Of a DNA stretch of 64,000 bases, positions 1 to 31,711 are shown piece after piece. A program made the position numbers and the translations under genes. Position 1 is the first letter of the stretch. The number at the start of each line of letters is the position of its first letter. This stretch comes from Atractiella rhizophila (Eukaryota): assembly GCA_021432655.1 (NCBI GenBank), contig MU271444.1, positions 1 to 64,000 on the forward strand. Reading direction: 5' to 3'. The notes beneath the pieces are model-generated. The model ran no database searches. It was not told where the DNA came from and saw only the letters and a program-made list of their open reading frames with translations.

Positions 1-1822
1 CTCCATAGATCAAGACTCCATTTTCGTCTCGACGGTGGCAGAAAGAGTCCCCTGGTGCCCACTTATTCGTATGCCCCTGATATTATGGTGATATGAGGGA
101 TTCCTTTATGGATCTGAGCGATGTAGCGAATCAGAGGTGTGGGGCGTGGTATGTTGACCCCTCGCATCCGCAAGTAAGTTTTCGCCTGCTCTTTTCTCTC
201 TCAACGGATCATCAAGAGCAATTCTGACATGTGTTAAGTTTTGCGACGTAAAAGCGTACTTCAAAAGTACAGACGGACACACAGGACAGGAATGCACTTT
301 CCTTTGGTCGTGCGGATGAAATATCTCACAAGAGCTAGTGTAGTGGGATTTCAACCCGCGTCGTGCCAATCTTCACCTCCTCAACTCCATCTCGTCGCAT
401 GGGGGGTATGTCCATCTCATCACTTGCGCTCCGATACCATAATGTTACTTTCTTCCAGGATGATATTAGTCGACTCGACTCGTCGAGGCAAAGTAAAGCA
501 GCCCCTCCCTTTTGTGCCGTTTAATGGTAACGAACTTATGAGCAGCGCTTCCCAGATGCTCTGCTAAAGACTGTGCCCCTGTGGTGTGCTGTCATCAACT
601 GTACTATGGAACGACTGAAGGTAGTGAAATACAACACCGACTATCGTACATTCTTCCCTCTCATCCCTCCTAGCGAGGCCGAGCAGATTTGCCGACTTTT
701 GCCCGTCTGGACAGAGAGATTGCTGGTTCGTTTCTTTCTGTCGAGGAGAAAATGGTCCCTCATTGATCGAGCTTCTTGTGAGTGTGACAGACTTCTTCGT
801 ATCCACTTGACAATTTAGTGAACCCCCTCACCAAACCTCTTAAACCCATCTTTGTGTCCCCCCCATCCGCTCTACCCAATGCAGAACAGGATACGTACAA
901 CGATTGCTATCCCATCTTTTGCACGAGTGCCAGTCGCTTCGTGCATGCTGGGGAAGGTGGACTAGTCGGCGATAGAGAAGGAGGATGGAGCTATGTGCAG
1001 GGCAGTGGGGACGATCATGAAGCCTGGGCAGATGTGAGCCTCATTGTCTGTTTGCCTTCTGCAAACTTTGCTGTTGAAGTGGTGACTTAAATCGAGTATA
1101 GGGTTTGACAGCGAAATTGTGGTGGGAACACAAAGATCTTCTTCTCCAGACAGACAGAGAGGACTTGCAGCATGTCATTCGTGGTCTTGTCCTAGAAGAC
1201 AGCAGAATGGTGGAAAAGGCGAAACGTTTCGATGTAGAGCAGACGAAAATTTCTATCCTCCTTGGAGGCTCACCGTCACCGTCGAAGCGTCCCGACGAGA
1301 GACCATCCGTCTTCATTGGACCCAAGGTGGTGAACGCAACAGAGTTTGGTGATGCCGCGATACAAGTCCTACTGCCTTCGAGTTTCAATGAACGCATGAA
1401 GAACTTTTTTGATGCCTTCCTTCCTCAAATATTGGATTTTTTCACGTCCAATCATGATCGGGGTCTCAACATCGTTGTTTTGCAGGACGAGTTTCTGGAT
1501 TTCGCGATTGCTGCTGCTCTTGCTCTCCTCGGTATTGTATATTTCTTTTATATAGGTATCGCTGACTTTCTCTCCGTCACAGTCAGATTCTACGACGATA
1601 AGCGCCAGTTCTCAGTGCCAGACGACAGCCATAGAATCAGTGAGTGAATGTCTATTGATGCCCTCAACCCGCTAAGTTTAAGGTATAGTGGACAAGACAG
1701 TGATTCGAAGTCGGCTACAATGGCTCATATCCTCCTCCGAAGGCCAACTCAATCCATGTCGTGCCGTCCTGAACAAAACGAATGTCTATTTCATGTCTAA
1801 ACCTAGGATGAATCACCATTAA
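1..1822 (+). CDS. RIT1: Initiator tRNA phosphoribosyl transferase (5'-partial, multi-exon)
   Basis: Spliced exons give PNQRCGAWY, FKSTDGH, LVDSTRRGK, VPLWCAVIN and YVQGSGDDHEAW, all Rit1-family motifs. Stop TAA at 1820-1822; the start lies before the window. Confidence 0.9.
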
Positions 1823-1886
1823 TCCCTGCGCACATCAAAACGCTGGAGACGATATATACGAAGGTCCATCTACAAATCGTCCATTT

Positions 1887-3339
1887 TTAATCTCGTTCCA
1901 AGCCAAGAACAATGATCCCAATCACAACAGCGCCACTTGTCAAACCCCAGGCGGCCCAAATCAAACTGAAAGCATTCCCGACCTCCGCCAAATTCAGTAC
2001 ACCCTTCTTATCGATATGAGCGTTGAAGCTTTGTTCAGCATCCCCAAGCTGCAAGCGGAAGATGACTGTCGTTATGATGCCCACGAGAAGAGCAGAAGCA
2101 GAGGTCAACACGGCGGTTTTCGCGAACAGACGATGTTTTGCTTCGAGGGCAGACATCTTTGCGGTGTGTATGGGGAGGGCGGCTAGTAAGAAGAGCACGA
2201 AAGAGCTGAAGAGCAGGATGATACAGAAGAGCAACAGCAAGGGGATTAGAGGAAATGAAATTGGAAGTCCCAGCGTCTCCCTAACGGCCGGGAATTCCAG
2301 TCCGAAATCGAGATAGGAGTTCAGGAAGTAAGGAACCAAGGAGCTGGACGAGCAGTTCGTCGTTGACTGGATACGGACGCAGGAGCCTAGTGTCCCCAAG
2401 AGCAGTTGATCACTGTCGTCCTCTTTTGTGGAACTTTCAGTTTGCCGCCGTCGCAGAGCCATGCTCATCAGTCGTCCTGGGATGGGTCGCTCTTCGAGCT
2501 CCACATTCAGAGAAGATCCCACGATGTTACTTGATGCTTTTGTGGTAGCGATGCTATTCGAATGGGAAATCTTGAGGAACGCCAAAGATTCGTCAAAAAT
2601 AGCGGTCGGCGCGAGAAAGACGAGGAGGACGAGGATGAAGGATGCAAAAGAGAGGAGAGAAGGGAAAGTGTGATACAGGTGCTTCTTCAGCCTGTTGATG
2701 GCCACAATTAGTCCATGGCCAGAGAGGAAGGAAAGGAACTTGCATCACTGATGATAATCCTTTCTTTCCGTCTGATGCCATGAATGTTTTTTCAATTGCC
2801 TGCTCTGTTGCGTTGAAGACGGGGGAGTTTTCTTGGACTAAGGATTTTTCCGGTTGCGTCCCTGGTTGAACCTCAGAGGATAGTGTTGGCGTTGGTGAAA
2901 TGAGGGTTGTAATTTCCTGTGAAGATGGGGAAGCGGGAGGTTGTAGAAATGTCGCTCCTGGCGTCGAGGCAGAATCGTGGTTTTCCACGACTAATCTTTT
3001 CTCCTTAGGCTCCTCTTCCAAAGCTAAGGCTGCGAAAGAGCAAAAGCTATCGTTGTCCTCCGAATCTACCGTAAACGCTGATGCAGTTCCGTCGTTTTCT
3101 AAAAATTCACTCGAAGGGTTGAGCGCTGAATAAAGGGAAATGCCTTTTGGAAAAGCGGCGGTGATTCGTTTATCAAAATCTTCTTCTTGTGGGCGATAAT
3201 AATAGTGGAACAACGGGTCCTCTACAGCTCTGACTTCTTTGGCTGACAACGGAAACGAATAACGACGATGCTGTGATTTTGCGAGGATGGGTAGCTGCCG
3301 AAAGGACGAGACAAAAGAAGTGGACTTCGAGGAATCCAC
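1887..3339 (-). CDS. SUR7/PalI-like four-TM membrane protein with a possible long acidic N-terminal extension
   Basis: Four hydrophobic segments plus a G-x-x-G-x-C-x8-C loop motif (LGTLGSCVRIQSTTNC). A GC-AG intron at 2692-2743 joins ORF 2593..3339 in frame to ORF 1887..2705. Start is either GTG 3339 or ATG 2781. Confidence 0.65.
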
Positions 3340-4226
3340 GTTGAAAACCTGATCAAAGGTGGTGTCGAAAGATTAAAGTGAAAGTGAGGAACAAGGCACG
3401 GTGCCATATCCATTCCATGGCTATCTTTTATAAGCGAAAATTGGGGTTCACATACGGCGAGCAAACCCGAGTAGTTCGAAGTAAACAAGGGTGAAAATCA
3501 CCCGCGCGTCTTAGTTAATTTTGCAACAAGGGCAAAGGACCTTCAGCTTTGACTTTGACTTTGGCAACAAGGGGAAGGTTTACTGCGGAATGCGGAGGTC
3601 AGTGCGTTTGTCGTACTTTGTTAAGCTGCTCCTAATGCATTTTGGTCCTCTCAGTCGTTGGAAGATCCTTTCACGCGTCGCTCTCTTTATTCAGTGAGGT
3701 TGTGTCCGAAAGCATTCGTCCAATGCACATGATGGAACAGAGGGTGTATGATTACGCCCAGAGCGCGCTCACAGCATCCTGCCCTCTCTACCCTTCATAC
3801 GATCTGATCATGGTGTTGGATCATAGTTTCGTCACCAACTGTCGCTCCACCTCCGTAGGGTCTGATACTGACCCCGACGGAACGGTCTTCGGAGCGATGG
3901 TGAGCTTTCGCAGATTGAGTGTATCCTACGACTGGACGACTCCACCTTCATCTTTCACAAACGTGGAAGCCTAAAATCTTTCCTTCCGTCATCAGCTCCA
4001 CCGGCTGCCACAGGTGCCGTCGTCAACAATGTCATTGACTAATTAGAGCAAATTTCACTAAGTGGAGGTTGAATTGAAGGCTGGCTAAGTGGAGGGAGGA
4101 TCGAGGAGTAGGGGACAAAATTAGATGTCTGCTAATGGAGGTAGAATTTGTCGATAAAAGCAGGTTCACGATGCTCTCGACCTACCCAAGCCTTGTCGAT
4201 AAGATCCAGAAAGTCTAGCATCCATC

Positions 4227-5760
4227 ATGTCCACTGAACAAATACCTAAGCAATTCTCCGGTTACGCTGCCCTTTCTGAAGAGGAGGGAAAGAAATTGGA
4301 TGTGGAACCTTACTCTTTCACGCCGAAGACTTGGAGCGAGGACGACGTTACCCTAAAAATTGTAAGCTAGCTCCTCCAGGTTGAATTCTATCACATCTAA
4401 CATACTTGATAGACTCACTGCGGGTGCGTTCCAACTTTTCATCATCTGCAGTTGAAGTGGCTTAGCTAAATTTCGCTGGAAAGAATCTGCGGTTCCTGCA
4501 TTCACACGCTTACAAACGGCTGGCCATTTCCAACGTAAGCTTCCTATCCCTTCGTTGTTCAAAGTCATTCATTTTGCTTGTTTACCAGCAAATACCCCGC
4601 GATTTGTGGTCACGAAGTCGTTGGAATCGTTGTTGAAGCTGGTTCAAACACGCGCCACAAAGTTGGTGATCGAGTTGGAGTAGGAGCCCAATCCATCAGC
4701 TGTGGCGAATGTAGGGAGTGCAAGGCGGGAAAGGAGCCATACTGCCTTAAAATGGGTACGCTTTCTTTTCACATCCACTCACATGAAGTTGGATGTGCTT
4801 GTTGATGTATACAAACAGGCGGAACGTATCAAGGAATTTTCGAAGATGGAACCATGGCTCAGGGAGGCTATTCGAACTATATGCGAACCAAAGGCGCTTT
4901 CGCAGTCCCGATTCCGAGCGTATTGAAGAGTGAAGTAGCCGCTCCACTGCTCTGTGCGGGGATCACGACCTATTCGCCTCTGAAGCGTTTTGGAGCGAGC
5001 CCGGGTAAGAAAGTCGGGGTACTTGGTATCGGTCCGTTTCAGCTTACAGTTCCCTGGGACGATACTTATGTGTTATATTCAAGGCGGTTTGGGCCATCTA
5101 GGGCTTATGTTCTCGAAGGCGCTGGGAGCAGATACTTACGCCTTGTCCTCGTCTAATGGAAAGTTGGATGATGTGGTCAAGATGGGCATTCCTAAGGTTC
5201 GTAATCCCACTCCTCATAAATGAGATGGAAAATTGACGACAACCTTCATAGGAGAACTACATCTCCTATTCCAATCCACAAGAAGTCATTGGCGCACATC
5301 GCGGCTCCTTCGATTTGATCATCTCGACCTCATCAGGAAAAGGAATGCCTCTCGAATCCCTCTTCTTTGAACTCCTTGCCCCAGAAGGCGTCTTCTGCCT
5401 CCTCGGCATGCCCGAGGAAAAATTCCCTGCCATGTTTGGGCAAGCTTTTGCTATGAAGGGTACCTTATTGTCTCTCTGCTCATCGCGAAAAGCTCCTCAC
5501 CCTTTAACCTAGGGATCCAATTGGCGGGAAGCATGATCGGCGGACCTCGCCAAATCGAGTGAGTCTTTTCTGGCTTCGACTGGAGAGAACTTGCTGATCG
5601 ATTGGATGACAATAGGGAGATGCTCAATTTCGCTGCTGATAACGGCGTTAAACCTTGGGTGGAGGTCAAACCCATGCACCAAGCTTCACAAGCTTTGAAA
5701 GAAGTGCACGCGGGCAGACCTAGGTATCGCTATGTTTTGGCGAACCCTGATTTCTCCTAA
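4227..5760 (+). CDS. Zn-dependent NADP(H) alcohol dehydrogenase, cinnamyl-ADH/Adh6-like
   Basis: GHEVVG, GDRVGVG, structural-Zn CGECRECKAGKEPYC, APLLCAGITTYSPL, GIGGLGHLG and C-terminal RPRYRYVL. Many introns, including an 11-nt microexon at 4413-4423. Confidence 0.92.
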
Positions 5761-6522
5761 AGCTGAAGCAAGAAGGCGTAAGAATCCAGCGTGAATGAAG
5801 TGACATCTTTTCCAAAAGAAATCGAGTGAAATTGATATCGTCAACGTTTGATAATTGCCAGTGGCAGCTTAAGTTTTGCAGAGTAACGTCTTTTTCGGCA
5901 AAAATTGACATATTTCGCAACAGCTCACTACATACCAGCGACCCTTCAGTTGACCCCGTCATGAAATAATGAGTGCCTCAGTTGTTTCTCACATTCAACG
6001 CAGTCAAATTTGAGTTTGGATAGCAAACAGCTCAAATTATCGAGAACGGTAACTATTACTTTGATGGACTCAGAGAGTAACAAAGTGGAGACGACATGTT
6101 GCAAAAGAGGAAGGAAATGAAACAATGCCAATGCGTTGCAAGATGCTGTGTAGCTATGCAAAGTATCAATTAATTAGGGGGAGGAGAAACAGCAAGAACC
6201 CAACAGACTGAACCGAAGCGAATACTCAGTCCAAAAGGGAGAATTGACAGCCGCAGGCTGTGCAGTGATAACGATGAGGAGAGAGGGGATAAAGAGCTGA
6301 AAAATTGTCCGGTTTCATAAAGAAGCAAGCAAAAGTATCAACGAGACATTTGTATCAATAAAAGACCACGAAACTGCGATGCGACTGCGTTCGATAATTG
6401 AGATAGAGTCGAACACGAACAAAACGAGATCAAGAAAAACAAGGCGATTTTGTGAGTTGGATCGTATATATGTAGCGTTCTATCTGTGAAAAACACTGTC
6501 CATCTGATATAACGATAGGTCT

Positions 6523-7263
6523 TCAATATCCAGCGGCGCTGGTATGTTCACTGGGCCTGGGATTGTTGGACTCGAGTTCAACCTCCGTATCCGTCGTGGC
6601 ATCCTCGTCGCTGTCGTCATAAGGAAGCACGCTACGGAGCAGTGTGAGGTGTTCGTTGTGCGCGAACGGTCCTTTCAAGTGTCTCTGCCACTGGCAGACC
6701 CTCTTGTATGCTTTCTCCATAAGGGTAGACTCATCGTCTGAAGCATCGGATTCTTCCCGTCCTCTCTTCTTCCCAGCTTCAAGTCGAATATTTTCATTGG
6801 TATTGTTCTTGGTGGGGGAAACACTAGAAAAGAGATCTAGACCTCCGCTCGCGTTGGGAGTGGAGAAAGGAGAGAGAAGCGACGTAGAAAGGCAGAACTT
6901 GGGGACATCGAAAGTCATTCCGCTGGCAGTATGAGGCACTTTTGGCGTGCTGTCGACGGTGGGGAACTCGAGACGGCCTTACGCCACGAAACCATCACTT
7001 TCTCTCCAAAAAAAGAGAGATGAGAGACCAGACTCACGATGTGCGCTTCTCCTTCCTTCGCAGTACTTTCTGCTATATTCGCTCGTCTTGTTCGATCCGG
7101 CACTATTCTGCAGGTTTCTTCTGGCCTTCTGCGATGTCGTTGGGGTCAATCCAAGGGAGAGTGGTTGGTCGAGCGCCGAGTCTTTGAGGTGAAACTGTTT
7201 CGGCTCCTCAGTGGGAGGGGGAGTGAAGAACGTTAGGGAGGAGGACAATAGTGTGATCGACAT
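6523..7263 (-). CDS. Hypothetical S/T-P-rich disordered protein, 2 exons
   Basis: ATG at 7263. A GTGAGT...TAAG intron (about 6979-7038) joins the first ORF in frame to ORF 6523..6939, giving ...SAHRRLEFPTVDSTPKVPH... Confidence 0.6.
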
Positions 7264-7449
7264 GTTGAGAAACAGGTATTGTCCGAGTATATTTAATCAA
7301 GCGTATGATAGAGCGCTGGAGTACTGGGCAGACCGGATGATAGAGTGGGTGGGCGCTGGGTGGATGCCGGTTTAGAAAAAGGGGCAAGTTGTGTCATCAC
7401 GTGATGTTTATCTTATTTATTTTTATCCAGACACATCGCGTCGCTTTCA

Positions 7450-7704
7450 ACGCGTTCTATCAAAAAAATACTTTCATGCATTCACGTTTATGTTTCGCAC
7501 GATTGCCAGCTGCAAACCCTCCGTTCAGCGATGTTCAGTTCATTTACTAAGTACGCGTCGCGACGCGTGAATTCTGACTCTCACTCCTCTCATTCAGGTT
7601 GAATTCACGAGTTAAATATTCCACGCCTCGTGATCAAATGAGTCGCAGTTTTTCGGTCTATCATAAACATCAGTTTGGCTTTACAAAGTAGAACCCTAAC
7701 GCGT
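7450..7704. promoter_or_regulatory. Cluster of four MluI/MCB (ACGCGT) sites including a perfect 16-bp palindrome
   Basis: ACGCGT at 7450, 7553, 7563 and 7699; ACGCGTCGCGACGCGT at 7553-7568. Lies in the divergent intergenic region between the orphan gene and the nitrilase gene. Confidence 0.55.
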
Positions 7705-7851
7705 CAATAAATAAATATTTGAGACAGAGAGGGAAATGCGTTAGCAAACTCTGACAACCGTTGCACCCTCTACAATTTACTGTAGGGAACACAGCGCCAG
7801 GGGTTTGGCTGGAACGAGCAGATACTGGGAGATCAGGAGAGATCACCGACC

Positions 7852-9182
7852 ATGAGTGTCACTGCAGCTATCACCCAGATCACGTCGCGTTCTTCCATCG
7901 CGTCGAACCTCCTGATGTGTCGCAGAGTGGTTCAACGGGCAGCAGAAGAGGGTGCCAAAGTTCTCTCCTCTCATCTTTATCTTCATATTCATCTAATTGA
8001 TACGACGAAACATAGGTCGTCTTCCTCCCAGAAGCGTCGGACTTCATCCTCTCTACTGGGCACACCGATCCTTCCCTCTCTTCTGCTGGGCTCTCGAAGC
8101 CGCTGAATGACAGCAACGAGTTTCTGGAGGGTATGAAGGAGCAAGCGAGAGAGTCCGGCGTGTGGATTAGCGTGGGGCTGCATGAGTCTGTTCGTGCAAT
8201 TGCTTCACATCACTTTGAGTGTAATCAGCGTTGGCCAATGTAGGCAGAAGACCAAAGGCGATGTTATAACACCTCAGTCTTAATTAACAACGAAGGCCAA
8301 GTGCGTATCCTCTCCTCACACTTTTGCATAAAGACAGAACTGATCGAACTGATATATTCAGGTGCTTCAATCTTACCGCAAGCTTCACTTGTTCGACGTA
8401 GACGTTAAGCCGGATGGTCCTACGATTCTCGAGTCAAAGTCAACGGTTCAAGGAAAAGAGATCTTACCACCCGTCGAGACTCCACTAGGCAAGCTAGGGA
8501 GCTTAATTTGCTATGATTTGAGGTAAGACTTTTCTACTAAGACTTCGTTGCAGCTTGTTTGATCAAAGTTTCTGGGATGGACAGGTTTCCTGAGCCTAGT
8601 TTACGCTTGAGGAGGATGGGGGCTCAAGTAATAAGTTATCCCGTATGCTCGCTTCCCTTGTCTTTGACAATTCACCTTGACATACGATCGGAGTAGTCAG
8701 CATTCACGATGAAAACCGGTGCTGCTCATTGGGGTACACTGTTCCTCCCCTTGCTCTGTAACAGTAACAATAACAAATCTCATCATTGCGTCTAGAAACT
8801 TTGCTAAAGACGAGAGCGATCGAGACTCAATCCTACATATTCGCCTCTGCACAAGTTCGTATTCTCATACCTTCATTTACCTTCTTCCCGTGATGATCTA
8901 ACACAGGTTGGCTATCATCTTCCCTTAACACAATCCTCCTCTCTTTCTCTCAAGTCTCTTCCAAACCCACCTCCTCGAGTGTCCTACGGCAGGGCACTCG
9001 CCATAGATCCATGGGGAGATATCATCGCCCGTCTTCCCCCTTTTAGCGATGACTATGATCCCGAAGACCTGGAAGATGGCCTTTTTGCACTTTGTCATGT
9101 GAATTTGGAGTATTTGGAGAAGTGCAGGCGTGAAATGCCGCTTTGGGAGCAGAGGAGAGCGGATGTATATCCTGAGATGTAA
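7852..9182 (+). CDS. NIT2: Carbon-nitrogen hydrolase, deaminated-glutathione amidase (yeast Nit2/human NIT1-like)
   Basis: VFLPEASDF (catalytic E), YRKLHLFDVD (K), ICYDLRFPE (C), SAFTMKTGAAHW, RAIETQSY and SYGRALAIDPWG across about 8 introns. Confidence 0.88.
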
Positions 9183-9537
9183 TGATTGATTCTGATGTAC
9201 TTTAATGAAGAGGCAAAATCTGTTAAGGATACGGGTCATTCACGCGCATTAACACACAGATTCCTAATTGTTGTTTTCTTGGAGGACATGCTGATACAGC
9301 CTCGTCCGCATGGATTGATTAGTTTTACCAGCAGTTCTCTCTCAAAATGACCGTCTCCCATCGACACCCTCTCAATTCAAGAAGTTCTTGCTGACCTTCC
9401 TGCATATTAGTTCTCGCAACGGTAAAGCCGTAGTTACCCCAACACTTCGCAACGCCGCTCGCCGATCCACGTCCTGCTGCTTCCAAGCGCGGGCGACGAA
9501 AACGCCAGGGAGGCTTGCATACCCTTAGCAGCTAACG

Positions 9538-11764
9538 ATGGCCCTGCGCCACCCTAGTGACCGCTTCCGGCACGCGCTCATCTCGCCCACTTCCACAATC
9601 CCCCACTTGAACCGTCTGGCGGAGAAGCTGGAGAATGGAATCGAGAATCCGGATTTTGAACGAAAGACGAGTTTGGCACTGGCTGTCGAGCATGGACGGT
9701 TAGATGTTGCAAGGTGGTTGTTGGAGATTGGACATGAGGATAGGGAGATTAGTAGGGTATGTCGATCATTTCAATTGCAGGCAGAAGGAAGGTGCTTCTG
9801 TGTTCGACATATGCCTGTCAATCGTCTTTTTCGCTGCTTTTGTGGCGTACGTGCTCGACAGATGATACTCTGATGCCATTACTCTGTCTGCTGTAGCTAA
9901 CGCCTACATACTGGTGATGCGTCGACTTTTCACATGCTATGCCAAGCTTCCTGCCTAGGTTGTATGAGCGAATTTTAGCTCAAGAACAGGTTGAATGTGC
10001 ATCAGAGTCTGTGGACTTAACATGCTGACGTTGAATATGCTACACAGGACTTCGAGAACAACACCATCCTGCACATTGCGGCCGCGCACGATCAACTGGA
10101 TATCATCGAGCTCTACGTATCCTTCTTCCCGTCCGTGACCTCTGTCGCTTCGCATTTTTCCATCTCTAATGCACAAGTAGATATGTGCTCGACTGGTCCA
10201 ACTCCCGTGGCTTTACCCCTCTGCACGTTGCTTGTCAGAAGGGAAAGACGGAATGTGCCGCCATCTTGTTGGATTTAGGTGCGGACATTGACCTGCCAGA
10301 TTCGAAGGGGAACACCCCACTGCATCAGTAAGGTTTTGTCTCAGCATACGGAGAATGAGGAACTAATTGGAGGATTGTTGGACAGTGCGAGCATGTGGGG
10401 ACATTTACCCGTGAGTTTATTTAAGGCGAAAGGAGAATGGGCTAATGGAGCATTCTCACAGATTGTGAAACTTTTGATTGAGCGTGGATGCTCCTTCGCT
10501 TCTAAAAACAATGATCATTTCACTGCTTCAGAATACGCATATTCGTTCGTCTTTTCAGCCTCTTATAAGATAAGTTAACTAACGAAACTTCTGACCATGG
10601 GATAGGTTTGAGGTCATGAACAAGCTACAAGAATACGGAAGGGCATACTTTGAATCCTCGAAACGTCAGCGAAAGCAGAAGCATCGAGATCGGGAGCGAG
10701 AAAAAAGTGACCGTCCAGCCGGGAGCAGCCGTTCGCACAGACTGGGAAATTCGGCATCGTCCAACACGCTTAACAGTGGGTTCGTGAACGGGGCAGAGGA
10801 CGATAGCGCCTCCATCGTCACTACACGGGAGGTATTCAAAGGGCGCTTGAGGAAGGAGAGTGGGTCCACGGTCGACAATACCATCGGCAGCGGCATTGGA
10901 AGCTCTGTAATGAGCTCTGGACTGTCCGGCAGATCTGGTTCGTTATCTATCAATGGTACTTCCCCGCCGGTAGCGAGCGCCAATCTCCCCTCTTCTGCCT
11001 CGATCGCCGGCTCCCTTGCTGCTTCATCGACGGTGGTCGCATCTCCAATGCCCCGTCCAGCTCCACTGCTGACCGCCATATCGACTCTCAACGGTCCCAT
11101 ACCGGCGCCATCCCTTTCCCCCGCTTCGATAAGTAGTGTTCGAAAAACGTTGAATCGAGATCAACAAGCCATGGCGGTCTTCAAAGCGGACGTGGGAAGA
11201 TCAAATAGCGTCACTCCCCTCCGCTCGAACTCGGCTCTAGACGATGGATACTTAGAAGACGATGTACTCGGTACTCCCACGGCTGCCTCTCCTCCAGTCG
11301 CCCCGCTCGTCGGAAGCCTTCGCTCAAAACTCCCACTACGCTCCAGATCCGTTTCCAACTCCACTGTTTCCAGTGGAGAGACACCATCCATTTCAAGTGC
11401 CAAGGCGTCAGCAGCTGCCAGTCTGAGAAAGGTCAAAGCCAACGTTCTCGAAGGGATACATCGACACACACGCTCTTCATCAGGTTCATCGACCAAACCG
11501 CCACCTCCGTTATCAGGCAAGACTCTGTCACACTCGACCTCTCTCCAATCCCTCACCCCTTCCACGCCGAATGGGAAAATCAACGCAGCCGTCGCTCCTC
11601 TCAACGTACTAGGGAGAAATATGGCTCCTCCAAAGCCGCCGCCAGAGAGCGAGAAGCCGAAGGGAAGGAGCAGGGCAGACAGTCAGGATGAGCTGGGGAA
11701 AAGGTTAGGCGTCGTACCGAAAGAGGATAGTGGCTTTGCGCCGAGACCGCCAGCGAAGGATTGA
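9538..11764 (+). CDS. AVO2: Ankyrin-repeat protein with long Ser/Pro-rich tail, TORC2 subunit Avo2-like
   Basis: N-terminal ankyrin repeats (TSLALAVEHG, NTILHIAA, LTPLHVACQKG, GNTPLH..ASMWGH, NDHFTASEYAYS) followed by a low-complexity C-terminus. Confidence 0.65.
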
Positions 11765-12139
11765 TTAGGGAGATTTTGGATTTCAGTACTTTTGTTGTTG
11801 TGTTGTATACGGTGTTGATCTGGATCAGACGCAGTTTGTCATCTTATCATTCGCATTCGGACAGCTGCTACCAGGAATATTATTTGATGCTTTATCTCAT
11901 GTTAGAGCGCTAGCATGATCAATCATCGCTGGAAATGTATAGCTTTGCCTATGGCTGGTGCTCAACTCCAGGTAAGGATGCACTCTGGGTAATAGACGGC
12001 TAACCGATGTCACGTGATTCAACATTATTCGTGTTGACTCCACGCAACGATCACCTACTTCTCTGTTGCTTTTCTGTGCCGGATCGCTGAGGATCTTTGC
12101 GAACCTCTTTCAGCAGAGACCTAAAATACTGGGAGGAGT

Positions 12140-13786
12140 ATGGGAAAGCATGGACTGTCGGTTGGATTGATTGGGATGGGGGACATGGGGAGAATGTATG
12201 CGTCGCGACTACTTGCAGCAGACGAGTCTTCAATGTGCGCCAGTTACTACCTATTTTTGTATCTGAAGATTCCGAGATGACATTGTTTGGAGACCAGCAT
12301 AAACGTCTGTGACGTTCCGGAACGATATGAATCGTTGAAGAAGGAGTTTGAAAGTCAGTCGACGCCATCCTTTGCTTTCGGTTCTAAGTGAGGAAGCTCA
12401 TTCTGAGTCGATGAAGATTCAAAACTTAACGTATTGAAGACGGGACATCATGTTTCACGATCGAGCGATTTCATCATCTATTCGGTTCCTGCTGAGCACA
12501 TTGACAAGATCATTGCAGAGTATGGACCCTGTAAGCTGCATCATCTTTATGTTTAGGCTTAGCTGATAGGACTCGGTAGCTACCAAAATTGGCGCGATTG
12601 TAGCGGGACAAACATCGACGAAAGCTCCCGAGAAGGCGGCTTTCGACAAATACCTTCCTGAGGATGTGAGCATCGTCTCCATCCACTCTTTACATGGGCC
12701 CCAGGTTCCGCCAGATGGTCAACCTTTGGTTCGTCATTTCTCTCTCCCTCAGCTATCACTCATTGGCGAGATTGATCCGCTATAGGTCATAATCAAATAT
12801 CGAGCTGCAGATGAGCATGTGAAGATTGTTGAAGAGATTTTAGCGCCGCTGAAGAGTCGATACGTGTATTTGAGCTACGAAGAGCACGACCAAGTAACTG
12901 CGAACACGCAGGCCGTAACGCATGCAGCCTTCTTGAGGTGCGTCCACGGTCCCTTTGCAGTCCACGCAACCCGTCTCACCGAGATCCATTCTGTGCGGAT
13001 AAAAGCATGGGTACGGCGTGGAACAACATGAATCGTTTCCCTTGGGACACCGGAAGGTACACAAAAGGGATAGAGATAGCAAAAATCAACATTACGCTCC
13101 GCATCTATTCCTCGAAATGGCATGTCTACGCAGGTCTAGCGATCCTCAACCCGTCCGCAAAAGTGCAGATCGACTGTTTTGCCCACTGTGTATCCGACCT
13201 CTTCAAGCTCATGATCGAGGAACGGGAAGGGGACCTACGGAAACGAATGTATGACGCGAGGGATGGGGTTTTTGGGAGGCCAGGGGACGAATCAGGGGGT
13301 AAAAATCGATCTCCGATCCTGCTGAGCGACGAGGTGTTGAATCAGTTCTCGATCGGCGAGCCTCCGAATGAATCCACTCCTCAACCGCCACCCAACTCAC
13401 ATCTCGCCCTCCTTGCCATGGTCGACTGTTGGCACACTCTGAAAATCAACCCCTACCACCACCTTGCGATCGCGGCTACGCCTCTGTTTCGTGTTTGGAT
13501 CGGAGTGGCCGAATACCTCTTCAGGGATCAAGACAGATTGAACGCAGCCATACAGGCCGCGTTGTGGGACAAGAGCCACAGGAGCGATGATGCCGAGTTT
13601 ATGTTGGCTGCGAGAGGATGGAGCCAGTGTGTGTCCTATGGGGATTTTAAGTGGTACAAACATCGGTTCGAAGAGACGGCAAGGTTCTTTGAGCCTCGCT
13701 TTGAGGAGGGGAAGAAGGTGGCTGCTAAATTGCTGCAGGTCATTATGGATCAGGAGAAGGAGAGATCAGCAGCTCGAGAAAACTGA
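12140..13786 (+). CDS. TYR1: Prephenate dehydrogenase (NADP+)
   Basis: VGLIGMGDMGRMYA Rossmann motif, GQTSTKAPE, IHSLHGP, HDQVTANTQAVTHAAFLSMG and LRIYSSKWHVYAGLAILNP. Confidence 0.95.
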
Positions 13787-13802
13787 GCGCGAGATGTTGT
13801 TG

Positions 13803-15176
13803 TTATGAACGGTAATCGGCATTGATGCTTATGTATTCCTGTATCCACATACCATGTCAGTCGTGTGCCGTTCACAGTTGACACTCAAGGGAAGGTGCAC
13901 GCACATGAGTTAAATCGCAAGTCCAATAGCACCCAGACTGAGACCCTACACCCATATCGACCCTGATCTCCACTTCCTCCTCCTCCAACAAAAGCTTTGC
14001 CTCCTCCTCGCTCCAATCCGTCGGCTGTCCCTTCCGCAACATCTCCACGCGTCTCCTCCCTCCCCCTTCGACGCCCGACACGAGAGAGACAGAGATTCTG
14101 TCGATGTCCGGAGTGGTCCCTGTGCGAGAGTTCCCGACTGCACAGAGGATGCGTCCCCAGTTAGCGTCACGTCCATAAATTGCAGTTTTGACGAGTGGGG
14201 AGATGGCGATCGCTTTAGCTATTGCGTGAGCTTCTTCGGCTGAGTTCCAATTCTATGGACGCAGGACCTCAGTGTCTGTCACTCTCTCGGTGGAGGGAAG
14301 GAGGGATGTACAGACCTCGACTGAGACCTTGATTAGTTTGGTAGCACCTTCCCCATCGCGCACCACTAACTTTGCCATCTCCAGCATTATCTCCTCCAAG
14401 TTGTTCCGGAAAAGAAGCTCGTCCTCGCTCCCCTCTCTGAAGGCAGCTCCACCAGAAGCCCCATTGGCGAGGAGGAGGATGGAGTCGTTAGTGGACGTGT
14501 CGCCATCCACGGATATGTTATTGAACGATCCCCTGATGCCTCCATCCAAGACCTGTCGAAGGAGAGAGGAAGGCACGGGAGCGTCAGTGAGGAAGACTCC
14601 GAGCAGGGTTGCGTGGAGTTGTTTTTTGTTGACAGAAGCAGAAGAAAGACCAGAGGTGACGAGGGATGGATGCATCATCCCTGCTCCTTTCACAATCCCC
14701 AACACGCTCCGCTTCTTCCCATCGGACGAGGTCCAGGATCGACTCCGAAGTTTCGGGAAGGTGTCGGTGGTCATGAAAGCCTTTGAAGCGTTGGTCCAAG
14801 CGTCGAAATCGTTTCTGAGATTGTCGAAAAGGACCGGGATGGATCCTACCACCCTATCGATGGGCAATCGCTGACCTATCACTCCGGTAGACATCACCAA
14901 GCTCCCCATCCCATCCAGTCGTCCATGTTGAAACTGAGGTTCATCAGAGTGACAGGACGAAGAAAAGATCAGCATTGCATGAACGTTGGTGAGGAGTCAC
15001 CTACCTGAGGTTCATCAGAGTGACAGGAAGCCAACTGGCACATGAAGAGGTGTGGTTGGGGCAAGGGTGAAGCGTTCGATCTTGGAGGAGTTGGACCCGT
15101 TAGACAAGAGCGTGGATGTCGTGCTGAAAAACCGAACAGCAGCTGGACGACGTAACAGACGGCTGACGGCAGGCAT
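13803..15176 (-). pseudogene. ARG7: Mitochondrial ornithine acetyltransferase ArgJ/Arg7, disrupted as assembled
   Basis: The C-terminal two-thirds is intact (MSTGVIGQ, FMTTDTFPK, KGAGMMHP, HATLLG, SFNNISVDGDTSTND, VRDGEGATK, DANWGRI, YWTCDLTHEYISINADYRS). The N-terminal presequence MPAVSRLLRR...VPVGF hits TGA TGA after 53 codons, and the GVK..DL/AAPV/NSGCANA region is absent. Confidence 0.8.
14934..15028. repeat. Exact 24-bp direct repeat with 71-bp period
   Basis: ctgaggttcatcagagtgacagga occurs at 14934-14957 and 15005-15028. Confidence 0.95.
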
Positions 15177-15683
15177 GTTGATTGACACGCTGGCGTGCTG
15201 AGAAAATATTCCTTTTCTATTTTTCTGTAAACTTCTATTTCAAATTCAAGACTCGATCGATATTGTGAGAAAGTAGGGCACGTGACCCTTTCTCTGTTAT
15301 TTCGCTGTGCTGTGAACAAAAGTTTAGACGTAGCCCATTAAACATTTGCTATGTTGTCTGAGCGCTACCTAATTTACTGTGATGCTGGGTCGATCTCAGG
15401 TTGGACTGTAACGGAAGACAGACAATAGGGTTCTTCCCGCCATTCCTCTGCTTGCGGTTCTATTACCGTCTTCTTCCTGTGAGTGTCTCGTCGCGCAGAA
15501 AACTTGCTAAGTAAAGCTTACATATCACTCTAAACAAGTGTTGGTGCGAACAAAACACCATACGCAACGACGATGGAGCGCCACCGCCGTGACAAGGAGT
15601 ATAAAAAGCGGGAGGATTGTTCACGCTCCATCATCTATTAACGATTCAATCTTCGCAGCGTCCAAAGAACAAAAGAAAACAGG

Positions 15684-16898
15684 ATGACCTCTTCCTCACG
15701 CCTCATAGCGATCGTAGGCATCACTGGCTCACAAGGTGGCTCTGTCTTTCGCGCCTTACAGGAGTCCTCGCTCCCGTACAGATTCAGAGGTTTCACGCGA
15801 GATACGACCAAACCCTCTAGCCAAGCACTGAGCAAACAGGGTGTGGAGATGGTACAGTTGGATATTGTGCCTGGGAAGGAGAAGGAGGTGACAGAGGCCT
15901 TTCGCGGTGCAGACGTTGTCTTTGTGAGCTTTTTCCACCTCCTATCTTGTTCAGGTGAAAGTGCTTGCTGACAATATGGATGGAGTAGGGGATGACAAAT
16001 TTCTGGGACGGTTTCTCATTGGAGAAGGTGAGTTCTCTCGCTTCCAATATCACACAGACTAAATTTGACGATTGAACTCCAGGAAATCGCACAAGGAAAG
16101 CTTATGGTAGACTCCGCCATCTCAGCCGGTGTCTCGCTCTTCATCTTCTCCGGACTCGAATCCCCAACGAAAGTGAGCGGAGGAAAGTATTCCAACAACC
16201 TCCCTCTAGAAGGGAAAGCGGCCGTCGCCGAATACGCGCTCTCCAAAGCCAAAACTTCGCCTTCTTTCAAGGTGAAGATCGTCCAGCCAGGAATTTACGC
16301 ACAGAACTTTCTGGGAGGAAGATTTAACCTCAAACTGGATAAAGACACCGGCAAGATGGTTTTGACCACTGACGCGGCCGAGGAAATGGTCATGCCCATC
16401 CTTGATGTGGAAGACTATGGACTTTGGGTCAGGGCTGCGATCGAGGAAGAAGAAGCGTATCCGAGCGGGAGCTCGTTGTACACTTTCGGAGAGCAGATCG
16501 CTATAGGGGTAATGTTGAAACAATTCGGCGCATGTGCGTCTATCCCTCTTATTACATTTCTTATTACATTATAAATCAATGAATGCTCGACAGTGCTGGG
16601 ATACGAAACCGTCTTCAACCACGTAGACCCGAAAGTCGCACCATGGTACAACTTCTTTCCGGCTCACGTCCAGCCTTCTCTAAGAGAAAGGTTCGCCCAA
16701 GTCGCAGAATTCGGTTGTACGTCTCCTTCTTCTTCTTTCCCTCAAGTCGATCGTATTCTTGACAACGTTCGGTTCCTTCTAGACTTTGGGAAGTGTGATA
16801 CGTCTCGCTCACACGATCATCTGGCTAGGAAACCTCTGACTTGGAGGCAATATGTCGAGAAACACAAAGCGACATTTGACGCCTTGATCAAGAAATAG
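15684..16898 (+). CDS. NmrA-like (HSCARG) atypical SDR protein
   Basis: IAIVGITGSQGGSV, RGFTRD, ADVVFGMTNFW, QGKLMVDSA and FIFSGL. Confidence 0.9.
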
Positions 16899-17586
16899 CC
16901 AAACTCCCTGTTAAGTTCCGTTAGGAATGTTCGTCTGAATTTGTAATGCATATGAATGAAATTAGGAAGTGGTGACATTAGCCGATAAGGCGTCTCGTTT
17001 ACTGCAGAACATAGCATTTCTGAGACAATGACTAACTGCATAGGAAGGGTCATGTAAAGGTTAGACGGTTTTATGTACTATTGATTGACGCGCTCCACTC
17101 TCTATACAGACTACACACGCTCCTTTATGCTGGCACAAGCATAAGCAAGACTTATCTCATACTGACATACTAAAGGATAGGAAAGGTGGATAAGGCAAGA
17201 TAGGATAACGGAGAATGTTGGCGGGAGTATAGGATGGGGGAGAAGAAAGCAAAGTAAGGGATGGTAATACAACAACAGCCTCAATGTATACGAAGAAAGA
17301 ATCCCTCTTTCACACCTTCGACCTTCCAAACCATTGCACTGCTCCTCCTCCACTTCTAACCGCACAAAGGGAAAGAAGCAAAGAATGGACGACAGAAACA
17401 AGAGGAGGAGAGTCGAAAGCTATACCTTATGTGGCTTGAGAAAAGGACTGACAGAAATATGTTGGCAAGGAAAGGAATGAGTGGACCAAGAAGAAAGTGA
17501 CGGTGGACGAAAGTCGAAGGTTATCCCGGTGGCCAGCGAGAGGAAGAAGGATCGTACCGCAGGGAGCGTTTCGTTGATCGTCGGAT

Positions 17587-18176
17587 TCACTGACAGAGTT
17601 CCATCCCCTTCTCCAGTGCCCCACGCTCCATTGCCAGCATCTGCTTGTCGATCGAGAGCGAGAAACCGGGGGAGTGGAATCCGCCGGAAGAGAGATGCTG
17701 ATGCTGGAGTTGTTGAGGTTGAGGAGAAGAAGGGACGGAAGTCGGGTTCAATACTTTTTGCAACACTTCGTCCGCCTCCAACATCTTCATCCCTCCGATC
17801 AAAACCACCTCTTCTCCTTCATGCCCTTCGTTCACGATTGGTTCTCCGTCGCATCCTCCTTCGTCGTCCGAATCTTCCAGGTCCGATCTCTTCCTCTTCA
17901 TTCCACAAATCGCTCGTTTGTTGGACGGCAAAGTGGATTCGTCGGAGGAGGCGGAGGAGGAGGAGGATATGGATTGGAGGGAGGAGCGCTTTTCGAGGAG
18001 GATGAGTCGTTCCTGAGAGGCGAAGAAGGAGGATAGAGCAAGGAGTTCGGACGGAGGTAGAAGAGAGGAGGTCTGACAGGCAGGAGCAAGCAAGGGATCG
18101 AAATTAGTGAAACTGCGTTGTGAAGTCAACAAGGGATGGGTGGGCTCACGATGCTGGTCGTCAAAGGAGGAGACAT
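17587..18176 (-). CDS. Hypothetical low-complexity protein with a basic KRKR motif
   Basis: ATG 18176, short first exon, then a GTGAGC...CTAAT...CAG intron in frame with ORF 17587..18132. No recognisable domain. Confidence 0.5.
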
Positions 18177-18784
18177 CCTTTTTCTTTTCTTTTCGCTTTG
18201 AATTTGAACTACTATAGAGAAGAGAATGGCAGCCTAGCTAGCTAGCTCGATCGTCAAACGAGTGCCTGGTGATGTGCAAGTTGTTTGACTTTGGCAGTCA
18301 ACTCGAAAGTCGTCCAGCGGGGAAATCTCAGTGAAGAGATGAACTTCTTTGGCCAGAGAGAGGATAAAGGTGGTTTAAAACGGTGTAATAGGGTCGTAGC
18401 GAGCGGAACGTAGACGAGAGGTGGGAAGTGCGTCGAGGTATTATTGAGTAAGAATTTCGACCAGAAAGACGGCGAGCTGACTTGTCGGTCCGGCCCACCC
18501 AAACTTTCACGATATCGGCCTGACCTGAGAGCTTGGTTTGGCGTGTTGGAGTGAGCGTGAGTGGAAGGGTCCCCCCCAATCGTTGGGAGCTTTTGAGGCG
18601 AACTTGACTTGACTTGGTCGTTTTGCTGTGATGCTCCCGAAGCGACGAACAACGACACCTTGTTCGGCTGCGCACACACGGACGCAGACACACCCAGCGT
18701 TTTCAGCCTGTGCTTTGTCCTGATTAGCCAATCTTGCATCTTAGCCAGGAGTCCGACCATCACACTTGTGCAGACTCTCCCAGC

Positions 18785-21151
18785 ATGCAGGCACCAACGA
18801 TTGCCCCGTCGACGTCAGCGCCAGAGCGTCCCATGAATGCGCCATCAGCGTCTCAGTCCACCTCCGCCAGCTCCGCATGCACCACCCCTTCCGCGTCCAC
18901 TTCCGGCCACTCCAGACCAACACTCTACAATCGCCAGCGGGGCTTCTCAGAACTAGTCTTTCCGCGCCCCGAACTCCCCATCACGACCTCCAACATCTTA
19001 TCGAGCGAGAGGGAAGGCCAGAAAACGGTCAGGCTGCTCCTGGGTGGCAATTTCAAAGGTGGGAGCAAGGAGAGTGCGGAGAGCGGGTGTGGGAATGAGA
19101 AGTGGAGAATGGAACAGGTGAAGGAGGATGAAGATGTCGGTGGATCGAGATCGAGGGATGGACCCGAACTCCTCGTTTGGGGATTCGAGCTCCGTGAGTG
19201 CCAGCCTTTCTTGTTTGGGGCAGGCAAGCTTGTTCTTGCCCAATCAGTCGCTTCGGCTTTGTTGTGCCGATTTCATGCCCTCTTTTCTTCAACATCGAGT
19301 CGCATGGAGGGTTTGATGATGCTGTATTCTCTAATTGTCTATTGAAGGCATTAATGTCCTTCACTTACTTCCCTCGGTTAGCCCTACCTCCTCTATTTCG
19401 TTCGAGATCCATTCATTGCCTGAACATCCTACGCATCGCGTATGACCATCCTTTTTTGATTGAGGCTGCTGTCGATACATCAACCCAGTGACAGTTATTA
19501 TTCTCGATTCCGTTTCGGTCGCTGGTATTGTCCATCACTAGTCCAGTCGCATAAACGTCTCACTTTGTGGGCGGCACTTTTCAGAAAGAATTGCCTATTG
19601 CCAGTGGAAAGTGACCAGCCACGTTGTTTCACTTGTTGGTCAGGTCTGCCATTCCACCAATCAGAAGGAACACCTTTTAGATGTGGTCGGTAATTAGCAA
19701 CAACCCTCGCACACCATTGGCTCGTCTACGCCGCCATCTCTAGATAGAGAAATTTCTGGGATTGATCAGGAATCTGTACTTCCCTTCTGGCCAGCATCCC
19801 AAATAGTTATCTTTAGCATGACAGCTCCAGTTTCATTATTCATGTCACCTTCTCGCCCTGTTACTCCTCAGAGGATCTGTTCCAGTATCTGTTCACTGTG
19901 ATTAAGTACCAGTTAAGGAGCGACGGGCACCCAAGTGCTTAGTTGGGCTCGTTATAGCTGTCGTCCTAACTAATTACCTCCTTCATACAACTTGCTGCCA
20001 TTGTCTCATCTCAACCATGGTCATTATGCTGAACCTCGAAACAGCTGCCTCTCAACAAATCCTCTCCCGCACACGACTGCTCTCCTTCAAGCTGCCCCTC
20101 CTTCCCGTCCTCATCATCCCACCGAGCGAGATGCACAAGAAGACCGGCGCAGCGGTCGATGCCCTCGAGTGCCAATTGAAAGCTGCAGGCGTTCGGTTCG
20201 TGAAATTCGACCAGGAGAGGATACCGGTTATGGAAGAAAGTAGGGATGTCACGGAAACGTTGGAGCAGATAGTGAAGGGCGAGGTTTGGGAAGAGAAGGT
20301 GGAGAGGGTTCGGAAGGAGGGTATTCGGCTTTGGAGCGAGTGGATGGAAGTGGATATGGCTGCTAGAGGAGTGTGGGACGATTTGGAGAGGGATGTGGAC
20401 GATGGTCGGTCTTTCTGTTCTTATTCCTTTCATCGTGACGCTGAGATGCCTTGGGGAAGGTGGCGTTGCTTCTTTCCACGTTAGTCGACATGATCAAGAA
20501 CGCTGGTTGGACTTTTCGAGACGAGTGGCAGAACGTCGTACCGAGCTTTTGTTAACTGGTGATGACACCCTCACACAGTCCAGGACGTTAGGCTCGACTC
20601 AAGAGAACTGGCGAGAAGTCGTCGAACGATGGAGACGAGCTGGTGGGCCTGCCCATCCCAAATCAGAAGAAGACAACTGGTCAAGTCAAGAAGAAGGCGT
20701 CGTCTCCGACCTGTCCTCTCTCACTCTAGACGAGGAGTCTGAAAAAGACAAGGAGCTGGCCTACCTCGAAGACCTCTACCTTGACCCTTTCCATTTTCCA
20801 TCCCTCCTGCGTCTAGGTCTCAATATCTTCACTTCCATGCTACGAAGTTGGCGTTTCACAATGTTCGGTCGTCGTCCCCATACTCTATCACCCGACATTC
20901 GTTCCACGGTCCAATCACTCCAATCCACCATAACGATGACTAAAGACGACGAGAAATCCTACCTTGAGCCTCACGAATCGCAATCGGATCAAAGTACATG
21001 CGAGGATAGGCCGGCCATAAGGAAGATTTCTTTGACTGGCGCTTTTCTTGCTTGCGCAGCTGCTTATGCCATCGGATGGCTGGTCGGTAGTGGTAGTTTG
21101 GAGCGTATGGTTAGTGCCTGCATCGGATCTAGAACTTGTCATGGCACTTGA
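18785..21151 (+). CDS. Hypothetical multi-exon protein with C-terminal TM segment (tail-anchored-like)
   Basis: ORFs 18734.., 20017.. and 20393.. plus small candidate exons between 19340 and 19900. Has a DPFHFPSL motif and a terminal hydrophobic helix (ISLTGAFLACAAAYAIGWLVG). Exon structure uncertain. Confidence 0.5.
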
Positions 21152-21496
21152 ACTCGATTTTCTTCACGAATTGCAAATTGTACGAACGTAAGTCGCTGTT
21201 GCTCGCTTCGGTTGTAAAGGGTTATGCGATTGTTGTATTCATCCTTGTAATTTTATCACTGACAATGCAGGATCCGTCCATGTCCATAGGAGTATCGCAG
21301 ACCAACTGTTGGCACGGTTTCAGTAACTACCTAATTATATAGGAGCAAGTGATACTGAACACTACTAAACTGACTGCTAAAGTGTGGATGGAGATAAAAA
21401 GAAACTCAAGAACCTGAAATTGAGTAAGTTACACGGAAGAAAAGGCCCAAAATGAGAGTTTATGATGCAAAAAGAATAAGGAATATGCAAGAAGAG

Positions 21497-24387: not shown

Positions 24388-24664
24388 GAAGACTGTTCCT
24401 GGCAGAGAGTCAGCATTACGTCGCAATATAGTGTGAGAGAAACTCGCAACAGAAGGAGCGAGGATCGTTATGGGTAAAGTGATTGTTATGGCTTATTTAT
24501 GCGAAATTTATGGACACAAGAGTGGAGGAGACTGCAAAGCGAAAGATGTTGATGGTTTGAAGGAAGAGTCACGCAAGGAGTCTTGAACTTTAGTGACTGT
24601 GCAGAATAAACTCACAAGAGAACATTGGATTGGAACATTGCATAAAGTTTATGTGTGTTCGAAC

Positions 24665-25144
24665 GTTCAAGTAGGCTTCTGAGGCTTTCAAGTTGAGACC
24701 GGGACAAGGACAAAGACGAAGCTGGCGCGCAGAAACACTGCCGCCCTTCGGTGGTCATTGAGAAGCCTATGAGTCTGGATCAGGGCTCGGCCAAGACATG
24801 GCGTTCTGTGTAGCTCGCTGCCTCGCTCCAGTACTGCTCCCCGTCGTTACCATTCACAGACATGGAACAAATCCGTCCCTAAGGAAAGAGCCGGATAGAT
24901 ATCCAACCTCATTGTTTGTTACACCATCGTGCAACGACGCACTCCAGGTTTCCCCGGTCGTATGTTGCAGTTGCTCATAAAAGACCAATGATTTGTTCGA
25001 GCGTCAACTTGCTTCTTCCTGTGTTGCATTCGCTATCTCAATTGTAATGACGGCCAGCCCGATAATTCTCTTCACCACCTCCCCAGAGGCTGGGCAGTCC
25101 AATTTCTGCGTCTCCCTTATCCGACATTTGCTTCTTCACGCCAA

Positions 25145-25145
<1 letters not shown>
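24665..25145 (+). pseudogene. Truncated, diverged upstream duplicate of the glycosyltransferase promoter plus first 33 codons
   Basis: Aligns with about 25207-25706. ATG 25047 gives MTASPIILFTTSPEAGQSNFCVSLIRHLLLHAN versus MATRPTILFTTSPEAGQSNFCVSLIRHLLLHAN in the intact gene, then runs into poly(A). Confidence 0.85.

Positions 25146-25186
<41 letters not shown>
25146..25186 (+). repeat. A41 homopolymer at the duplication junction
   Basis: 41 consecutive A residues. Confidence 0.95.
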
Positions 25187-25189
<3 letters not shown>

Positions 25190-25607
25190 TCAAGGAATGT
25201 TGCATATTCAAATAGGCTCTGAGGCTTTCGAGTTGAGACCGAAGACGAGTTGGTGCGCAGAAAGACTCACCATCGCCATAACACACCTGGCGCCCTTCGG
25301 TGGTCATTGAGAAGCTTATGAGTCTGGAACAGCGCTCGGCCAAAACATGGCGTTCTGTGTAGCTCGTAGCTCGCTGCGTCCCTCCACTAGCTCGCTCCAC
25401 TCCTGCTGCCCGTCATTACAATTCATGGAACCAATTCGTCCCTGAGGAAAAGCCGCATAGATATCCAATCTCATTGTTCGTTACACCATCATGCAACGGC
25501 GTACTCTAGATTCCCTCGGTCGTATTTTCCAGTTGCTCGTATAAAATCAATGGCTGCCAGAGTGTCATCTTCTGTCTTGCCTTCGCTCCTTTCCATTTCG
25601 CACTTAC

Positions 25608-27309: not shown

Positions 27310-27501
27310 AGTGGTTCACATATACTGATTGACGGATCAAATAATTGCCTGTTTATTCGTTTCTGGATAGGAGGAAAGATTGACTAATTATTGTGCACAC
27401 TATGTCTGTGAGGAGCGATTGCACCGATTGCAATGAAAGGTATCGACAGTACAGAATCCAGATATTACCCAAACAAGTCCATCCGTCCCGCTCTCAAAAG
27501 T

Positions 27502-30861: not shown

Positions 30862-31711
30862 CTAATGCTGCAGAACTACCCCTTTGCCTGGCTGCCACTC
30901 GCGACAGACGTCTTCCACATTCCTAAGATATCTCAGTCGGATGAGCAGCTCTTTCCCTCTGTCTAAATCCCGAGGCTGTCCATCAAGTGCCTCTTTGAGG
31001 TCTTCAATAGTTTGATCCATATCCACTACACCCACGGAACCTTTAGCCATGCACGGTTCTGAAGCCAGGTGGAGCGAGGACGAACCTCGATTCTCTGCCC
31101 GAATCTCCTCTACCTCTTCTTCAGCTGTTGCAGCCTCTAATTTCTCTCTCGTTTCAAGGATAGAGATGAGGAGGTCAGGGTCTTCCAGTTGGTCCGACTC
31201 CCCAATCTCCACTCCCTCGCGTGCCAGCTGCACACGACACTCAACGGCTGGCTCTCCGCATACGAAACAGGAACGGGCGCACCATCCACTCAGCTCGCTT
31301 GAAATCATCCTCTAATGTTCTCAATCCCTCATTTACCCTCGCGCTCCACTCCCTAGCCCAGACCTCTTTCCCCAAGGCTCGATCAGGGTGGACAACTCCC
31401 TGCAGCCGCCTATACTCCTTCTTGAGTGACTCTAATGCTTCACGGCTGAGGTAATAAGTCTTTGGTATTGAGAAAAGCGTCCGATAGTCGAGTTCGGAAG
31501 ACGAAGGAGGGGCAAGAGGCTTGCTACAGGAGGGACAGAGCGGAGCTGGGGCAGTGAGCGTTGTATGGCATTCTGGACAGCTAGAAGTGGCTCGCCAAGC
31601 TGAAGTCGTAGTAAAAGGAAAACCTCGTAAGCTGTTCAAAGGGGACGATGTAGCAGGACGAGGTAGCGTTGTTACACGGCGAAGAATGGGAAATGGAAGT
31701 GTTGGTCGCAT
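30862..31711 (-). CDS. JAC1: Mitochondrial Fe-S cluster J-domain co-chaperone HscB/Jac1
   Basis: Arg-rich presequence, CxxC-x10-CxxC, HPD motif, SARVNEGLRTL..RAEW, DPDLLISILETRE and LIRLRYLRNV...EWQPGK. Confidence 0.92.

Follow-up and report, generated by a model that had tools for sequence, protein, structure and literature searches.

Can one mRNA of a fungal membrane-protein gene be read from two starts, a GUG and, further downstream, an AUG? The locus that raises this question lies on the minus strand of the window, i.e., the whole stretch of 64,000 nt that was analysed (Atractiella rhizophila GCA_021432655.1, MU271444.1, positions 1..64,000), and was chosen as an extreme case out of a genome-wide scan. 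The initial annotation proposed that a GUG-initiated N-terminal extension precedes a SUR7/PalI-like membrane domain here. The elements of the leader are:

2782..3404, minus strand: ATG-free zone of 623 nt, defined by the positions of the ATGs
3373..3375, minus strand: in-frame TAA closing the open frame upstream, read from the sequence
3337..3339, minus strand: candidate GUG start of putative use, flanked by A (-3) and G (+4); no near-cognate codon of the open frame lies farther upstream
2782..3339, minus strand: putative N-terminal extension of 186 codons, rich in S, E, P, T and A, without Met and probably disordered (sequence; RNA-contig cover)
3250..3267, minus strand: RRYSFP motif, a pattern match spotted post hoc
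2779..2781, minus strand: first in-frame ATG, in a weak context (T at -3), where the short form would begin (sequence; starts of relatives)

The minus-strand ATGs around the locus lie at 3453, 3418, 3413, 3407, 2781, 2745, 2716 and 2506, which confirms that 2782-3404 holds none in any of the three minus-strand frames. With both strands of the window compared, this is the longest gap without ATG; in 905,620 strand-bases (40 sampled loci and the window), with 27 gaps that measure 400 nt or longer, it ranks second. The expectation of about ten ATGs stood in part: the window-wide frequency gives 10.6, whereas the composition-corrected expectation is only about 3. Dinucleotide shuffles of the zone contained 3.0 ATGs on average and none in 3.0% of 5000; for codon shuffles the values were 4.0 and 0.66%, and for synonymous recoding 2.5 and 3.3% (5000 trials each). 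AUG depletion alone had been taken as a signature of dual initiation, which it is not, since selection acts against AUG in every leader that is scanned. The informative part of the locus is the open, coding-like frame rather than the depletion.

Long ATG gaps were also seen elsewhere. The second-longest of the window (18176-18739, minus strand, 560 nt) leaves 19 codons open into the next ATG. A frame of 186 codons (18254-18814), in a different phase, shares part of this gap and precedes an acidic ORF (17587-18237). At L039:3167-3871, on the plus strand, a gap of 702 nt with four codons open into the next ATG is probably a long plain leader.

One frame of the zone is open for 197 codons, from 3372 to ATG 2781. 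The TAA indeed lies 12 codons above GTG 3339, and 186 codons separate this GTG from ATG 2781. Residues S, P and T account for 0.30 of the extension and D and E for 0.14; its RRYSFP motif, which fits the patterns of PKA and 14-3-3 sites, is a candidate for both. The single-sequence fold (pLDDT 37) fits disorder, though this would be expected of any orphan sequence.

Whether the frame is transcribed, and from where, was judged, with small-share runs kept out of the evidence, from assembled RNA contigs of 4 out of 23 runs (X1, X2, X5 and X22), which are unable to show start or strand and from which rare forms are lost. These add the following elements:

2692..2743, minus strand: GC-AG intron of 52 nt, whose removal restores the in-frame ATG 2745 across the junction (joint seen in contigs of X22 and X5)
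1887..2691, minus strand: exon for a four-helix claudin-fold domain (Sur7/PalI/Fig1 clan) with the stop (fold model, structure matches, haplotype variants)
3386..3402, minus strand: probable transcription start region (~3399-3400), placed by the X22 contig end at 3400 and the TATA spacing
3405..3418, minus strand: three ATGs (3418, 3413 and 3407) in frames other than that of the extension, with none of the listed RNA-contig pieces over them
3425..3432, minus strand: TATA-like box in the sequence, of presumed function, 32-33 nt upstream of the point where RNA cover ends

The frame does continue into the membrane domain, by way of the 52-nt intron; left unspliced, it ends at a stop at 2595-2593. 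The X22 contig spans 2742-3123 and 3125-3400 and crosses the leader without a joint, the break in cover being a site where the haplotypes differ; leader cover ends at 3083 in X1 and at 3079 in X2. As it omits four introns, the X22 contig was taken as RNA. GUG 3339 lies inside transcript contigs, with the frame open to the main ORF and the strand assigned from the minus-strand splice joint. No transcription start confined to below ~3300 was found: the spliced contig extends to 3400, so at least some transcripts begin above 3300. Its loose 18-nt end at 3400 was considered as an upstream exon and rejected, since it does not occur in the window and matches exactly, in sense orientation, a syntaxin-like gene (C220, C864); this contig end is therefore a library chimera point and no mapped start. 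The locus with this gene (L053, G000:C220:6896-9913) contains two genes apparently in tandem, the second of which gave the chimeric tail, and which we take to be syntaxin-like from a reading of the translation.

On the other side of the tetraspan gene, and convergent with it, a plus-strand gene at 900-1800 has weak Pfam matches to Rit1 (tRNA ribosyl-phosphate transferase) and three introns confirmed by RNA contigs. One X22 contig covers both genes, which suggests overlapping 3' ends.

In basidiomycete promoters the spacing from TATA to start is 35-46 nt (PMC9604717), and in Cryptococcus AUGs less than 20 nt from the transcript start get skipped (PMC7049704). ATGs 3418, 3413 and 3407 would probably sit in the promoter, between the TATA-like box and the start. 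The stretch 3125-3500, which takes in the TATA-like box, the probable start and the GTG, is identical between the haplotypes over 376 nt and carries three variants in X22.

The extension could instead be ordinary coding sequence with its AUG on a small upstream exon, which we consider improbable. No joint was seen in the 2742-3400 contigs, which leaves a weak route: ATG 3407 or 3413 would come into frame upon removal of a 44-nt intron (3392-3349), which would take out the in-frame TAA, itself within a branch-like TTAAT, and farther exons could share the acceptor. An acceptor (3349) and a branch-like motif (3376) do occur, amid many pyrimidines, and splicing there would preserve the frame; an exon shorter than about 30 nt might be hidden by tip clipping during contig assembly, and the unspliced X22 end, with its chimeric tail, perhaps comes from rare molecules. 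The donor, on the other hand, would be GTTCCT, of a class (pyrimidine at +3, no G at +5) that occurs 68 times against 78 in the control, with no excess, whereas donors with G at +5 show one (80 vs 37). In a noisy, unvalidated set, introns of at most 44 nt make up just 9 of 161 candidates and donor-to-branch spacings of at most 16 nt 9 of 105. The candidate ATGs would be just 14-25 nt below the TATA-like box, other routes require non-consensus GC donors or introns of 452-837 nt, no cover of 3474-4175 exists in any of the four runs, and an AUG exon leaves the total lack of out-of-frame ATGs unexplained.

The public gene model for this gene (P0001, 2692-3993, minus strand) omits the extension, as had been foreseen, and adds 32 residues from exons ~1.1 kb upstream. 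Neither these exons nor the ~1.1 kb intron find RNA support (no cover in 4/4 runs, which is weak as absence), and we rejected them. The joint observed at the acceptor of P0001 starts at 2743, a GC donor which that model missed.

Fifteen in-frame near-cognate codons lie above ATG 2781, none of them CTG. GTG 3339 precedes all the others and alone combines A at -3 with G at +4, so that the strong context ascribed to it is the best among them by a rule borrowed from other fungi, which may differ in A. rhizophila. X22 has a 3-nt deletion right above this GTG, with positions -4 to +4 intact. The last three bases before ATG 2781 form a context termed poor in PMC7049704; two relatives (P0002 and P0035) start at a distance from the first membrane helix (TM1) comparable to that of this ATG. 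Structure of the leader is weak (z from -1.5 to 1.5), and a search for a hairpin enhancer downstream of GUG 3339 gave nothing above shuffles. Among near-cognates GUG is ranked second to CUG, and all are far less efficient than AUG (PMC5666671); the long form would therefore probably be a minor product.

Another alternative keeps the tail or the short form and moves a start: translation of the tail would begin at a later near-cognate (ACG 3072 and GTG 2988 are examples), or the short form would stem from an additional transcript start farther down and not from leaky scanning. We regard this as very improbable. It would agree with a sense-codon score below zero in the first 34 codons of the extension and of 0.041-0.047 in later parts, with the X1, X2 and X5 contigs ending before 3125, and with the mean depth in X22 (90.9 for the 5' contig, 174.4 for the 3' contig), contigs being a poor measure of level. 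Against it, the later codons have poorer contexts, the ATG depletion extends to the 5' end, and the haplotypes do not differ anywhere in 3125-3500.

The main rival to initiation at GUG 3339 is a long AUG-free 5' leader without useful translation, whose open frame arose by chance or is the decaying relic of an N-terminal tail; we judge it somewhat unlikely. Chance alone produced an open frame of 186 codons in 286 of 60,000 first-order Markov simulations (~0.5%), which speaks against it, as does the coding-like contrast between frames: the sense-codon score of the extension is 0.033 (coding median 0.029, n = 123 chunks), against -0.042 and -0.044 for the two remaining frames, and a phased Markov score gave a similar contrast, the training set for coding being long open frames and no annotated genes. 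On the opposite side, nine of 65 non-coding stop-free frames scored at least as high as the extension. Also against the rival, relic coding sequence should retain ATGs, and of 79 coding chunks with a length of 558 nt not one was ATG-free (Met-free: 3 of 79 chunks of 186 residues), so the region combines a coding-like frame with a leader-like lack of AUG. A leader of 600 nt would also far exceed the Cryptococcus median of 105 nt (PMC7049704).

Other observations favour this rival. Scored on synonymous choice alone, the codons of the extension fall below zero (-0.016; membrane exon, 0.025), other long ATG gaps of the genome lack an open frame into the next ATG (e.g., the one at L039), and the locus was selected as extreme. 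The two haplotypes differ at 430 of 24,638 aligned bases. Five of their differences in the extension are non-synonymous and two synonymous (seven and two with X22 included; neutral expectation, 70% non-synonymous), compared with none and six in the membrane exon (Fisher p 0.021) and 52 and 97 in other long frames over 24.6 kb (p 0.10 vs the extension). Polymorphism in the extension looks neutral, without sign of protein-level selection. The listed variants of the second haplotype and X22 introduce no stop, frameshift or new ATG into it, which is weak, the variants being few. No homologue of the extension was detected elsewhere (Atlas best 0.75), and the tails of six relatives gave no significant homology with it (144 to 450 of 500 shuffles as high). 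A human study describes many ribosome-supported extensions without signs of selection and notes that remnants of former coding sequence can look like such extensions (bioRxiv 10.1101/2022.05.02.490320).

The protein to which the extension would be attached deserves separate consideration. Its gene is present once per haplotype (C265, C254). The model of the membrane exon (mean pLDDT 87) has four helices and a loop with beta-sheet, and TARPs and claudins are the best Foldseek matches (best E 8.9e-4). In 26 sequences, one cysteine of a pair never varies (C113) and the other hardly does (C104). The only Pfam match is a weak one to Claudin_2, below the cut-off; neither SUR7/PalI (PF06687) nor Fig1 (PF12351) matched the tetraspan, and the locus is outside the 11 SUR7 matches of the genome. 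Among 30 proteins scanned, the tetraspan included, 11 had SUR7 matches (two above cut-off) and four had Fig1 matches (none above cut-off). By language model, its three nearest neighbours are all clusters of Fig1 (0.90-0.92). A PDB sequence search gave 0 matches; a search of the genome for the Fig1 family gave none either, and with the controls silent too it is uninformative. The tetraspan is claudin-like and belongs to the Sur7/PalI/Fig1 clan, being a Pfam member of neither family, so the SUR7/PalI-like label is retained at the level of the clan and dropped at that of the family. Four helices, the beta-sheet loop and the conserved Cys pair are shared with Sur7/PalI and Fig1 tetraspans. PalI/Rim9 forms bear long C-terminal tails; the tetraspan, by contrast, has almost none, and the tail proposed here is N-terminal. 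Sur7/PalI proteins are contained in Cryptococcus vesicles (PMC8329992), which tells nothing about the function of the tetraspan gene. Elsewhere in the genome, clusters of SUR7-family matches at G000:C172:58591-62215 and C1202:165-3500 resemble tandem copies.

HMMER returned 34 matches to the protein among 1.84 billion representatives. The three closest (P0002, P0035 and P0036) are tail-less gene calls from short contigs, and most others have the starting Met right before the first helix. P0022 and P0016 possess Met-started tails of ~200 residues, of a make-up resembling that of the extension and unalignable to it; the two tails are alike (1 of 500 shuffles as high), and both are automatic gene calls with possible intron read-through. 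Their clade also has short-tailed members. In the tree the gene stands beside this long-tail clade (SH-aLRT 91), a split also present in an earlier tree (95/88); P0031 is absent from both trees and P0030 from the second, and AU tests rejected no alternative placement (p 0.37, 0.41). Whether the query is taken from the long-tail or from the short-form clade, this gene is all that is recovered in the genome. With relatives in a short-form and a long-tail clade and a single gene answering to both, production of both forms from one gene is possible. That Atractiella would make the tailed and the tail-less tetraspan from one mRNA (GUG/AUG) where other Pucciniomycotina use two genes is, in our opinion, unlikely. 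Two metagenome scans for orthologous DNA returned 590 and 194 pattern matches, none of which was confirmed.

The mechanism itself is known in fungi (cpc-1, Pgd1 and the Cryptococcus synthetases) and, with Vangl2-Long, also for a membrane protein of vertebrates. Vangl2 crosses the membrane four times. Its long form is, like the form proposed here, a membrane protein with a non-AUG N-terminal extension made alongside an AUG form; it differs in the extension being of 48 residues (144 bp), conserved in vertebrates and a cause of Golgi retention, on a protein of an unrelated family (bioRxiv 10.1101/2020.10.20.347385). In Neurospora crassa cpc-1 and its homologues in Pezizomycotina and Basidiomycota, a near-cognate codon starts an N-terminal extension, and the likeness is close: a leader of several hundred nt without in-frame stop, a near-cognate with A at -3 and G at +4, and an extension of ~180 residues in Pezizomycotina, comparable to the 186 here (PMC5487733). 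Unlike the tetraspan gene, with no upstream AUG in its RNA contigs, cpc-1 encodes a transcription factor and has regulatory uORFs in the leader that the extension bypasses; a dN/dS of 0.35 and initiation experiments back its extension (PMC5487733), whereas ours is putative, from sequence and RNA contigs. Non-AUG isoforms of Ustilago maydis Pgd1 (PMC7214817) and of Cryptococcus ArgRS and LeuRS (PMC7049704) likewise arise in basidiomycetes from near-cognate starts and leaky scanning, which yield two forms. As described there, these are soluble enzymes with short organelle-targeting signals and starts at AGG-AUU, AUU or ACG; the tetraspan has a candidate GUG and a tail of 186 residues.

Given the observed sequence anatomy, intron, RNA-covered leader and membrane-domain fold, we favour, at a probability of about 0.55, dual initiation by leaky scanning at GUG 3339 and AUG 2781 (or 2745), i.e., two forms from one mRNA. 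The interpretation first advanced is thus partly supported: the contig reaching 3400, the lack of a joint, the GUG context and the missed annotation speak for it; depletion is no signature, and the variants look neutral. Transcription would begin at ~3400 on the minus strand, and a minority of ribosomes would initiate at GUG 3339, some 60 nt from the cap, giving a product of ~467 residues with a disordered cytosolic N-terminal tail ahead of the first membrane helix. The remaining ribosomes would move along the leader, which is weakly structured and devoid of AUG, as far as AUG 2781 or 2745 and produce a plain tetraspan of 281 residues, in a ratio of long to short that we can only infer. Absence of AUG would keep the short form reachable, and absence of stops would leave room for the long form. 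Its tail would most probably hold phosphorylation or sorting motifs that alter the location or the partners of the protein.

The wider weight of such a finding is limited, as the mechanism is already established. If the reading is true, the public gene model would be wrong at its 5' end, and a fungal claudin-like membrane protein would carry an unannotated cytosolic domain of 186 residues. We found no paper with both 'Sur7' and 'non-AUG' in a literature search that left subscription journals mostly outside; within its reach, this would be the first non-AUG isoform of the Sur7/PalI/Fig1 clan. The locus would then offer a compact test case for the use of GUG in Pucciniomycotina, and a tetraspan family of the plasma membrane would join organelle-targeting signals and cpc-1 among fungal non-AUG isoforms.
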